The notes below the pieces were generated by a model. It saw only the letters and a program-made list of their open reading frames with translations. It was not told the origin of the DNA and did not search any database. From positions 192,001 to 256,000 of the forward strand of contig JBHLNF010000002.1 in NCBI GenBank assembly GCA_048937405.1: a DNA stretch of 64,000 nt, read 5' to 3'. Shown piece by piece: positions 56,036 through 58,077 of this stretch (the first letter of the stretch is position 1; each line of letters starts with the position of its first letter). The DNA comes from Promethearchaeota archaeon. GTDB taxonomy: Archaea > Asgardarchaeota > Lokiarchaeia > Sigyniarchaeales > SOKP01. The position numbers were made by a program, and so were the translations under genes.

Positions 56036-56878
56036 ATGAAAGAAACAAGATACTCGAGATTAAAAGCAATAAAAGAATTTGGTTATAATGTAGATTGGGA
56101 TTTATTAAAAAAATTCCATGTAGGGATTATAGGAGTTGGTGGTTTAGGTTGTGTATCTTCTGAGATGGTTGTAAGGTGTGGAGTTGGTAAAATCTCCTTA
56201 TTCGATTTTGATACAGTAGAACTTGTAAATTTAAATAGGCTAATGTTCAAAGAAGAGCATATAGGATTAAAAAAAGTTCAGGTAGCCTCTAAAATTTTAA
56301 AAGAGATTAATCCTGATGTTGAAATTGAGACTTTTGATAGGAATGTTATGGATATCGATTTTGAAAGTAAATTTGAAGAATCCATTTCAAAAATGCACAT
56401 TATCTTAAATGGACTTGATAATATTCCTGCTAGAGAATATTTAAATGTGAAATGTATTAAACTTAATATTCCCTATATAGATGCAGGAGCTTCAAGAAGC
56501 GGTTTATCGGGTTATGTTCATCCTGTTATTCCATATAAAACAGCTTGTGCTAAGTGTATAAGTAGCATTGGTTTAGATGTACCAGATGAAAGAGGTGAAC
56601 CTTGTGTAGCATCACTCCCTTCGACCATGGCAATTTTAGCAAGTATACAAGTCCAAGAAATGTTAAAATTTCTATTGAAGTTCGGTGAAATGATTGATTA
56701 TTTAATGTATGATATGGTAAACGGGCGTTTTTCTGGTTATACGACACATTTGGATGAAAACTGCCCAATTTGTGGAAGAAAGTCTAAAATAATAAAAAAT
56801 AAAGTCATTCCTAAAATATCAGTGACAGATCTTGATGATTTAATAGATAAAATTAAAAATGAGGGTGAAAAGCAGTAA
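56036..56878 (+). CDS. UBA5-like E1 (ThiF family) activating enzyme
   Basis: RYSRLKAIKEFG (UBA5 PYSRLMALKRMG), GVGGLG, DFDTVELVNLNRL, SGYV, CAKC, PCVASLPSTM (UBA5 catalytic VCAASLPTTM), LKFLLKFG. Confidence 0.88.
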   Translation: MKETRYSRLKAIKEFGYNVDWDLLKKFHVGIIGVGGLGCVSSEMVVRCGVGKISLFDFDTVELVNLNRLMFKEEHIGLKKVQVASKILKEINPDVEIETFDRNVMDIDFESKFEESISKMHIILNGLDNIPAREYLNVKCIKLNIPYIDAGASRSGLSGYVHPVIPYKTACAKCISSIGLDVPDERGEPCVASLPSTMAILASIQVQEMLKFLLKFGEMIDYLMYDMVNGRFSGYTTHLDENCPICGRKSKIIKNKVIPKISVTDLDDLIDKIKNEGEKQ

Positions 56879-58077
56879 AATACTTTAAAATATCTAATGA
56901 ATTTTTAGAAGCTATCAAAAATCAAGCACTTTCAAACGAAAATGAAATTTATGGATGGCTACTTGGATACCAAAAAAAAGGTATTTCAAATGTATTAGGA
57001 ATTTTTGAATGCAAAAGATTTGAACAACAAACTTTGATTAGTGCTATTCCTGATGCTCAAGAATTTCAGGAATTAAGTTTTGTACTACCTCAAGGGATTG
57101 GCCCCATTGGAATTTATCATTCCCATCCTTTCTCAAGTGAAATCTTCCATAGTCATACAGATAATTTTACATTAATTAGCCTAAGTAATCAATTTCCTCA
57201 GTGTATCTCAATAATTACTAACGGACAACAAATTAATTATTATCAAATGGATAAAAAAGGCAAGATAAAAGAAATCGAAGTAAAGAAAGTTGAGGTTAAA
57301 ACACCTAAATTTTTATTATTTTCAATGAAAGAAGATTTAGTAATAAATTTACATAAAGAAAGCATCACCGGTTCTATAAATAGAGAAAAATTAAAAATAA
57401 AAATTATCAACAAAATAAGAGAATTTTTTGAGGAAAGCTGGGAGGATATGGAGTTATTTCATAAACACAGATTAATAAAGAAAAATGAATATATTAAACC
57501 ATATTTAGTAGATTCCATATGTGAAGATCCTGTCATTATGAAAATCCCAGATCATTATAAAATTCATAAGAAGAATGAATTATTTATCGAAACCATTAAT
57601 AAAAACAGTGAAATTAATACTCTAAGCTTTAATTTAATGATAAAAACCACAATTCCAATATACATTATAGAAGTAAAGAAAAAATATAATGAAATAAGCC
57701 AATTAATAAAAACTGAATTTATCAGTAATAATATTTTGCAAAAAGTTTATAATAGTATTATTGATATTGAAAATACACAAATTTTCCTCCCAGAAGATTT
57801 TTTTCTCAATTATTTTGGTTTTTATATTAAACTAATAAGCTTTGCTGATAATTTTATAGCTCATAATGGCCTATATAAATCAAATTTTAAGTTTTTGAAG
57901 AAACTATTATCAAATTTTGAAATTTTTACGAATAAGAAAATGGATAATAAATTTAAAAAAAATCTATTTATGTTTCTTAAAGATTTAAAAAATTCAAAAA
58001 ATCTTTTTAATGGGGAAGAAGAATTTATAAAAAAATTTTCAACTATTGAAAAAGAACTGAATTTCAAAAATATATAG
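56869..58077 (+). CDS. JAB/MPN+ metalloprotease with long C-terminal extension (start uncertain)
   Basis: Frame open from 56869 includes NEIYGWLLG (catalytic Glu) upstream of the ORF-track start; GIYHSHP...S..D JAMM motif. Confidence 0.82.
   Translation, partial: KAVKYFKISNEFLEAIKNQALSNENEIYGWLLGYQKKGISNVLGIFECKRFEQQTLISAIPDAQEFQELSFVLPQGIGPIGIYHSHPFSSEIFHSHTDNFTLISLSNQFPQCISIITNGQQINYYQMDKKGKIKEIEVKKVEVKTPKFLLFSMKEDLVINLHKESITGSINREKLKIKIINKIREFFEESWEDMELFHKHRLIKKNEYIKPYLVDSICEDPVIMKIPDHYKIHKKNELFIETINKNSEINTLSFNLMIKTTIPIYIIEVKKKYNEISQLIKTEFISNNILQKVYNSIIDIENTQIFLPEDFFLNYFGFYIKLISFADNFIAHNGLYKSNFKFLKKLLSNFEIFTNKKMDNKFKKNLFMFLKDLKNSKNLFNGEEEFIKKFSTIEKELNFKNI

Follow-up and report, generated by a model that had tools for sequence, protein, structure and literature searches.

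The stretch of DNA analyzed here, referred to as the window, covers 64,000 nucleotides (positions 192,001 to 256,000 of contig JBHLNF010000002.1, assembly GCA_048937405.1) of a Loki-type Asgard archaeon, whose genome of 4.47 Mb in 29 contigs has a G+C content of ~28% and is 100% complete as judged by marker genes. According to the open reading frame list, five closely spaced genes on the + strand form an operon in the order zinc-ribbon protein (ZnR), activating enzyme (E1), JAB metalloprotease, ubiquitin-like modifier (Ubl), and conjugating enzyme (E2). The JAB gene is our main subject. A sequence-only reading of this DNA had noticed a JAMM-motif gene between the E1 and modifier genes, and this was borne out: the frame there spans 402 codons and encodes an intact JAMM site. 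The features of the locus are listed below.

54932-56017, + strand: first operon gene (open reading frame), 361 aa, with a C-terminal CxxC-x17-CxxC zinc ribbon
56036-56878, + strand: UBA5-like E1, ThiF fold, 280 aa (Pfam ThiF, 4e-52)
56863-56868, + strand: GGGTGA, a Shine-Dalgarno-like box, whose own TGA closes the JAB frame upstream
56869-58077, + strand: JAB/MPN+ protease gene, open frame of 402 codons plus stop
56869-57294, + strand: MPN+ (JAMM) catalytic domain, residues 1-142
56875-56877, + strand: GTA, putative near-cognate start, at the position of the homologues' start codon
56944-56946 (E26), 57118-57126 (H84 and H86), 57151-57153 (S95) and 57160-57162 (D98), + strand: JAMM residues
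57301-57918, + strand: alpha/beta domain, residues 145-350, resembling the UFSP2 N-terminal ("new fold") domain and the second domain of ODR4
57865-58074, + strand: C-terminal three-helix bundle, residues 333-402
58139-58405, + strand: UFM1-fold modifier, 88 aa, ending in ...RGIVG-stop
58402-58944, + strand: UFC1-like E2, 180 aa, with invariant C137 (58810-58812) and H140

The last codons of the modifier gene encode R-G-I-V-G and are followed directly by TGA, which overlaps the E2 start codon (shared ATGA); the earlier claim that the modifier is encoded already mature, ending exactly at glycine, is hence correct for this genome. The span 56869-58077 had been given as the JAB gene, and the frame was right; position 56869 is not its start, being only where the frame opens, with AAA after an in-frame TGA.

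The JAB frame is translated into 402 residues without a stop. It has the catalytic Glu, the JAMM motif and the MPN fold that define JAMM/MPN+ proteins, and none of E26, H84-x-H86, S95 and D98 varies among 36 aligned full-length homologues. The motif spacing, HxH-x8-S-x2-D, is one residue longer than that of CsRpn11 (x7) and can be aligned with it via a one-residue insertion. This copy scores just under the cut-offs of Pfam Prok-JAB (3e-5) and JAB (3e-4), which match 36 and 32 of the 36 family members, respectively. Among 5.8 billion proteins searched, 127 were relatives, nearly all of them from Loki-type metagenome bins and ~400 aa in length. Conservation spans the entire length of the protein, with N181, W191, Y265, E283, N287, P308 and F316 being near-invariant in the C-terminal half; this half contains no invariant column, and therefore no conserved Cys or His. 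The ~260 aa at residues 143-402 had no match in Pfam, and no hydrophobic anchor was evident by eye in the Lys/Glu-rich C-terminal helices. An AlphaFold2 (AF2) model of the protein reached a predicted local distance difference test score (pLDDT) of 86 and a predicted template modeling score (pTM) of 0.87.

All three core partners of this protein are specifically of the UFM1 type: a UBA5-like E1, a UFC1-like E2 and a UFM1-fold modifier ending in Val-Gly, that is, the parts by which a UFM1-type conjugation system is recognized. Among solved structures, the closest relatives of the E1 are UBA5 proteins (9e-51), whereas the next family, MoeB, gave 3e-25. A profile of the E2 family (24 sequences) matched UFC1 in the PDB with 2e-8, compared with 0.06 or worse for other E2s; all 24 members are recognized by Pfam UFC1 (best 1.4e-11), and the family alignment shows no variation at C137 or H140. 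Assignment of the modifier to the UFM1 type is based on fold comparison alone, because sequence searches gave no significant match: neither phmmer nor a 22-sequence profile found anything in the PDB, and Pfam Ufm1 matched only 2 of the 22 family members, at an E value of 0.059. The AF2 model of the modifier (pLDDT 88) superimposes on solved UFM1 with a template modeling (TM) score of 0.80-0.82 and a root-mean-square deviation of 1.1-1.4 Å, versus 0.60-0.68 and ~3 Å for ubiquitin, and 22 homologues show no variation at V87 or G88. As a separate observation, the E1 ends in an acidic, amphipathic tail (residues ~250-280; 56780-56875), ...SVTDLDDLIDKIKNEGEKQ, similar in relatives, which we take to resemble the C-terminal UFC1-binding peptide of human UBA5.

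Two further proteins may belong to the cascade. The first operon gene, which had no match in Pfam, PADLOC or the Atlas, precedes the E1 gene colinearly in every Loki-type locus that extends far enough, and weaker homologues are located nearby in Heimdall and Hermod loci; it could encode an E3-like or adaptor component. Unlinked to the operon (G000:C16; also L036:823-3195) lies a gene for a 790-aa protein that combines DDRGK (1e-13), E3_UFM1_ligase (UFL1-like; 5e-16), PCI and VPS28 C-terminal domains and is a candidate E3 or adaptor. A comparable fusion was mentioned in a preprint (bioRxiv 10.1101/2020.10.19.343400).

Loci related to this operon were drawn from genome searches and a scan of 185,579 species genomes. 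The sequence-only reading would have been undermined if the JAB gene were not linked to the modifier system in related genomes; we found E1 and JAB to be linked in every related locus showing context, that is, in more than 30 loci from four archaeal groups. The order ZnR-E1-JAB-Ubl-E2 is kept in ~17 Loki-type loci, Heimdall loci have E1-JAB-Ubl-E2, and Hermod loci contain the same genes in a different arrangement. Four Thermoplasmatota or "Methanobacteriota" bins (L030, L031, L033, L034) encode E2-E1-JAB, so that the system extends beyond Asgard archaea; the JABs of these bins are of equal, two-domain length, and their JAMM spacer contains a longer insert. Among 41 relatives searched, JAB was found in 6 and a UFC1-like E2 in 4, all 4 of which also have JAB, while 35 have neither; the two with JAB only are short contigs of incomplete bins. 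These E2 counts were obtained with the family alignment, since the Pfam UFC1 model in six-frame searches missed even this genome's own E2. Within the genus, the system is present in 2 of 25 searched genomes. The system is thus one unit, yet optional. Two loci have insertions between E1 and JAB: L008 carries two genes there (2575-4950), for a leucine-rich repeat protein and a multi-pass membrane protein, which have a ~60-aa C-terminal tail in common, and L012 likewise has an insertion (3292 to 5001).

A complex of the two proteins, which had been suggested as a check by structure prediction, was modeled in three runs from alignments of the JAB (A1) and modifier (A2) families. The median interaction score (ipSAE, interaction prediction score from aligned errors) of the three runs was 0.85, whereas the best control reached 0.00; in calibration, that mark was attained by 58 of 80 solved complexes and by 2 of 110 mismatched pairs. 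The runs had at least 81% of contacts in common, with a partner pLDDT of at least 81. In the model, the modifier tail (residues 82-88) lies in the JAMM site against JAB residues 26, 84, 86, 95 and 98, and a second interface joins JAB residues 174-188 and 265-294, in the second domain, to modifier residues 11-20. The first contact may reflect likeness, because JAMM-Ubl complexes have already been solved; the second has no resemblance to those complexes of single-domain proteins, and N181, Y265, E283 and N287, which belong to the seven residues that are near-invariant in the C-terminal half, are part of it. The model supports binding between JAB and the modifier. The C-terminal extension had been supposed to confer target specificity, a suggestion that the model does not favor, as its best-conserved residues are predicted to face the modifier and not a target.

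With linkage, co-occurrence with the E2, an intact site and a modeled modifier tail in that site, the view that JAB is the system's own protease is supported, and the product of the gene is probably a JAMM zinc metalloprotease specific for the modifier of this UFM1-type conjugation operon. In the proposed mechanism, the MPN+ domain would hold the extended ...RGIVG tail in its Glu/His/His/Asp zinc site and hydrolyze the bond after the last Gly, while the alpha/beta domain would clamp the modifier body at its beta1-beta2 loop via N181, Y265, E283 and N287. As the modifier is born mature in this genome, the task of JAB here would be to remove it from targets, and probably also to strip auto-modified E1 or E2.

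The related loci suggest a second activity. In six of them (L010, L016, L017, L019, L020, L024) the modifier is in frame with the E2 with no stop after Val-Gly (for example, ...GIVG|SKSHDISWQRS...), and in L023 the modifier frame likewise continues, up to the contig end; these frames encode ~270 aa and are located as follows.

L010: 6310-7122, modifier-E2 open frame
L019: 6284-7096, modifier-E2 open frame
L016: 3090-3908, modifier-E2 open frame
L017: 6283-7098, modifier-E2 open frame
L020: 6302-7120, modifier-E2 open frame
L024: - strand, modifier-E2 open frame
L023: 6289 to contig end, modifier-E2 open frame

Short tails follow the modifier in L003 (ART), L022 (WYE) and L032 (L), so that it is fused or tailed in 10 related loci (7 fusions and 3 tails). 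E1 chemistry requires a free Gly carboxylate, and a cut after Val-Gly is therefore required in those species, in which JAB would have to release the modifier as well. JAB is the sole protease encoded in the operon. CsRpn11 was reported to perform both precursor processing and deubiquitination (PMC6043591). The likeliest reading is that JAB is a dual maturase and deconjugase, of which the maturase role is superfluous in this genome. The term "dedicated deconjugase" applied to it earlier consequently suits genomes such as this one and does not suit the family, in which the fusions and tails demand a maturase. The modifier-E2 fusions of the relatives would be natural precursor substrates for the protease.

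The C-terminal extension had been called unrecognised, and the pairing of a JAB protease with a UFM1-like modifier had been described as one not used in eukaryotic UFMylation. Structure comparison calls for revision of both statements. In a Foldseek search of the PDB, C. elegans UfSP (5xda, 5ejj) was among the MPN matches, with ~370 aligned columns, and an exhaustive VIA-align pass over 48,161 solved chains gave two informative matches. The top two clusters of an ESM Atlas shape search were eukaryotic, namely "odr-4 homolog", 98% of whose members match Pfam ODR4-like, and insect UFSP2 (UFSP2_MPN_insect, UfSP2_N and Peptidase_C78 domains), each with a TM score of 0.62 over 325 residues; CSN5, BRCC36 and bacterial JABs gave 0.35-0.39 over 163-190 residues. 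Across ~48,000 solved chains and the Atlas clusters, the only proteins matched over both domains are of the UFM1 pathway: ODR4, insect UFSP2, C. elegans UfSP and mouse UfSP2. ODR4 was reported to be an MPN-fold pseudoenzyme that lacks the JAMM residues and anchors UFSP2 (PMC10952357), and ODR4/C1orf27 to consist of an MPN domain and a second domain that resembles the N-terminal one of UFSP2 and ODR-8 (PMC13137144). By fold comparison, the archaeal JAB has the same succession of an MPN fold and a UFSP2_N-type alpha/beta domain, and over its whole length its predicted fold resembles that of ODR4 and that of the module formed by the MPN and N-terminal domains in worm and insect UFSP2. Its MPN domain is not catalytically dead as in ODR4, with all JAMM residues present and invariant.

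The likeness to ODR4 and UFSP2 might be convergent or generic, that is, an ordinary operon JAB of the Caldiarchaeum ubiquitin, Bil or CBASS type may have acquired an unrelated alpha/beta domain that binds the modifier or a target. Sequence searches do not confirm common descent. Pfam ODR4-like (PF14778), UfSP2_N (PF20908) and UFSP2_MPN_insect (PF26560) matched 0 of 36 family members at E values up to 1, and a profile of the C-terminal 260 aa found 35 matches among 1.84 billion proteins, all from its own family and none eukaryotic. A protein-language-model search of the Atlas with the C-terminal half likewise gave no usable match. The single hint from sequence came from a Hermod homologue, which scored against Pfam ODR4-like with an E value of 0.0063 (15.9 bits, under the 24.5-bit cut-off). 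On the other side, matching over two domains solely with UFM1-pathway proteins would be unlikely by chance for a protein from a UFM1-type operon, and the alignments, at 276-325 aa, are roughly double the length of those with other MPN proteins. We therefore consider convergence unlikely, and homology of JAB to the ODR4/UFSP2 module is judged quite likely, since all of the two-domain matches that unbiased searches gave for this protein, encoded in a UFM1-type operon, belong to the UFM1 pathway. By its predicted fold, JAB is a structural counterpart of the module and not a member of it by sequence, and it is best read as an active counterpart, possibly a forerunner, of ODR4 and of the nematode and insect UFSP2 scaffold.

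More tentatively, and as a proposal that falls a little short of an even chance, the ancestral enzyme that removed and matured UFM1 may have been a JAMM metalloprotease with an MPN and an N-domain, as in the operons of Asgard archaea and some Thermoplasmatota. Eukaryotes would then have added the catalytic C78 domain, and the MPN domain would have lost its zinc site and survived as ODR4 and the N-terminal half of UFSP2.

Another explanation concerns biological role: the operon might be an accessory stress or antiviral conjugation system like Bil, in which JAB mainly restrains or resets conjugation and does not serve housekeeping UFMylation. The occurrence of the system is patchy (2 of 25 genomes of the genus, 4-6 of 41 relatives), its gene set of E1, E2, JAB and Ubl equals that of Bil operons, and extra genes are inserted in L008 and L012, all of which would suit such a role. 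PADLOC, however, reported generic E1-E2 models on the E1 (1.7e-15) and weakly on the E2 (0.0014); these respond to the generic E1 fold, and JAB, the modifier and the first gene were not matched. The three core parts, moreover, are specifically UFM1-type. Such an accessory role appears rather improbable, and it is compatible with the proposed protease mechanism.

How translation of the JAB gene begins is a further point. No ATG, GTG or TTG is present in its frame from 56869 up to the TTG at 57034, 30 codons after the catalytic Glu, and the JAB of a genus-mate (G001) likewise has no canonical start ahead of this Glu. In 13 loci, a GGTG[AG] box was found exactly 6 nt ahead of the aligned start position. 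The codon that follows this box and spacer is ATG in L015; ATA in L007, L008, L009, L012, L016 and L017; ATT in L014 and L018; ATC in L002/L011, L013 and L021; and GTA in this genome. Taken together, ATA, ATT or ATC occurs in 11 loci, 10 of them distinct. A 72% identical homologue (P0004) has Met exactly at the Val encoded by this GTA (MKYFNIS versus VKYFKIS). For the 55 codons that precede the first canonical start, the ratio of nonsynonymous to synonymous substitution rates (dN/dS) relative to L007 is 0.13, and these codons are therefore translated. These data point to translation from a near-cognate codon (GTA here; ATA, ATT or ATC in relatives) 6 nt after a strong GGTGA ribosome-binding site, which would keep the JAB protease scarce relative to the products of neighboring genes.

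Two other modes of expression were considered and rejected. A fusion of E1 and JAB by stop read-through or a -1 frameshift does not agree with the frame relation, which differs between species: JAB of L002 is in frame with E1 behind one TGA, whereas it is in the -1 frame in this genome. It was also rejected because L008 and L012 keep the Shine-Dalgarno box and ATA despite the genes between E1 and JAB. A start at the GTG inside GGTGA with a +1 shift on AAA-A would fit this genome and L008; L002 and L012 are without a slippery run.

Similar starts were seen elsewhere in the genome. Genome-wide, 14 long frames lie behind an in-frame GGTGA and contain no ATG, GTG or TTG in their first 27 codons; the codon at +6 nt is ATA or ATT in 10 of them, CTG in 2, ACG in 1 and GTA in 1, the JAB gene. 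Among frames without a GGTGA box, ATA, ATC or ATT occupies that position in only 28 of 175. Examples of the near-cognate frames are found on C10 (- strand, near 8259), C19 (- strand, near 118783) and C5 (+ strand, near 34698). Judging from these sequences, near-cognate initiation looks like a habit of this Lokiarchaeon, and standard gene calls would therefore shorten N-termini. Within the JAB family, ~45 of 120 database entries begin at an internal Met and are without the Glu; since gene finders drop this catalytic residue in about a third of the entries, automated annotation hides the enzyme nature of the protein.

The GTA of the JAB gene is the extreme case and may indicate very low expression or incipient loss. 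Indeed, JAB might be silent or decaying in this genome, its start having mutated to GTA, and the system might run without deconjugation on a modifier that is already mature. The lack of ATG, GTG and TTG ahead of the catalytic Glu would agree with this, as would a GTA where P0004 has ATG and L007 has ATA. GTA is two positions off AUG and the only one among the 14 comparable frames, and the base is real and no assembly error, the start region having the same sequence in contigs from four public runs, which belong to two studies. A decaying gene would hardly show the other properties of this one: a frame of 402 codons that has stayed open in DNA of ~27% G+C, catalytic and interface residues that are all intact, a dN/dS of 0.13-0.16 versus L007, a retained Shine-Dalgarno box with its spacing, and near-cognate starts that are apparently used by at least 13 other genes of the genome. 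We regard silencing as distinctly unlikely, and an expressed JAB protease is preferred. That JAB is instead a non-catalytic, ODR4-like scaffold that recruits another protease is very improbable despite its sharing the architecture of that pseudoenzyme, given that the JAMM residues are invariant in 36 homologues, unlike in ODR4, and that Peptidase_C78 (PF07910) matched neither the protein nor its family, nor the genome, where the result is weak and absence is not shown, as control genomes were likewise silent. The same limit applies to the genome search for ODR4-like, which gave no match and to which control genomes were silent too.

UFM1, UFC1 and UFSP2 were listed as eukaryote-exclusive by Picchianti et al. 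in 2023 (PMC10183829). UFM1 homologues in Asgard archaea were described by Köstlbacher et al. in 2026, with no E2, E1 or protease in the main text (PMC12962969). Our literature search, with subscription-only papers outside its scope, found no description of the operon, of an archaeal UFC1 homologue, of an archaeal ODR4 counterpart or of the non-standard JAB start. The locus presents an entire core UFM1-type cascade in one operon with its own protease, and JAB provides a concrete source from which two puzzling eukaryotic parts, ODR4's dead MPN domain and UFSP2's N-terminal domain, could have derived. The modeled likeness suggests that eukaryotes retained the scaffold and swapped the cutting domain; if true, catalysis would have passed from JAMM to papain-like C78 within a single scaffold. 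A question about eukaryogenesis, concerning the assembly of the de-UFMylase and the reason for the pseudo-protease within it, would thereby become testable with recombinant proteins.

JAB proteases in prokaryotic E1-E2-Ubl operons are already known from Caldiarchaeum ubiquitin, SAMP, Bil and CBASS systems. What is new in this JAB is the UFM1-type cascade, the ODR4/UFSP2-N module and the frequent non-AUG start. CsRpn11 of Caldiarchaeum subterraneum (6fju, 6fno) and PfJAMM1/HvJAMM1 (5ld9, 5lda) consist of a single domain and have modifiers of the ubiquitin or SAMP type as substrates, whereas the present JAB is longer by 260 residues, shows the HxH-x8-S spacing and is paired with a UFM1-fold modifier that ends in VG. 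BilC and Cap3 (8tyy, 9ild), of Bil and CBASS, belong to a different E1/E2/Ubl lineage and are without a second domain. The catalytic domain of UFSP1 and UFSP2 (Peptidase_C78) presumably does the same job as JAB, cutting after the C-terminal VG of a UFM1-fold modifier, but with an unrelated fold and chemistry, a papain-like Cys-His-Asp site in place of a zinc JAMM site. Closest in layout are ODR4 (C1orf27)/UFSP2, C. elegans UfSP/ODR-8 (5ejj, 5xda) and insect UFSP2 (PF26560), which share the MPN plus N-domain arrangement. Sequence similarity of JAB to these proteins is undetectable. JAB differs from UFSP2 in that no C78 domain was found in it, and from ODR4, whose MPN domain is a pseudoenzyme, in that it has kept all of the JAMM residues.

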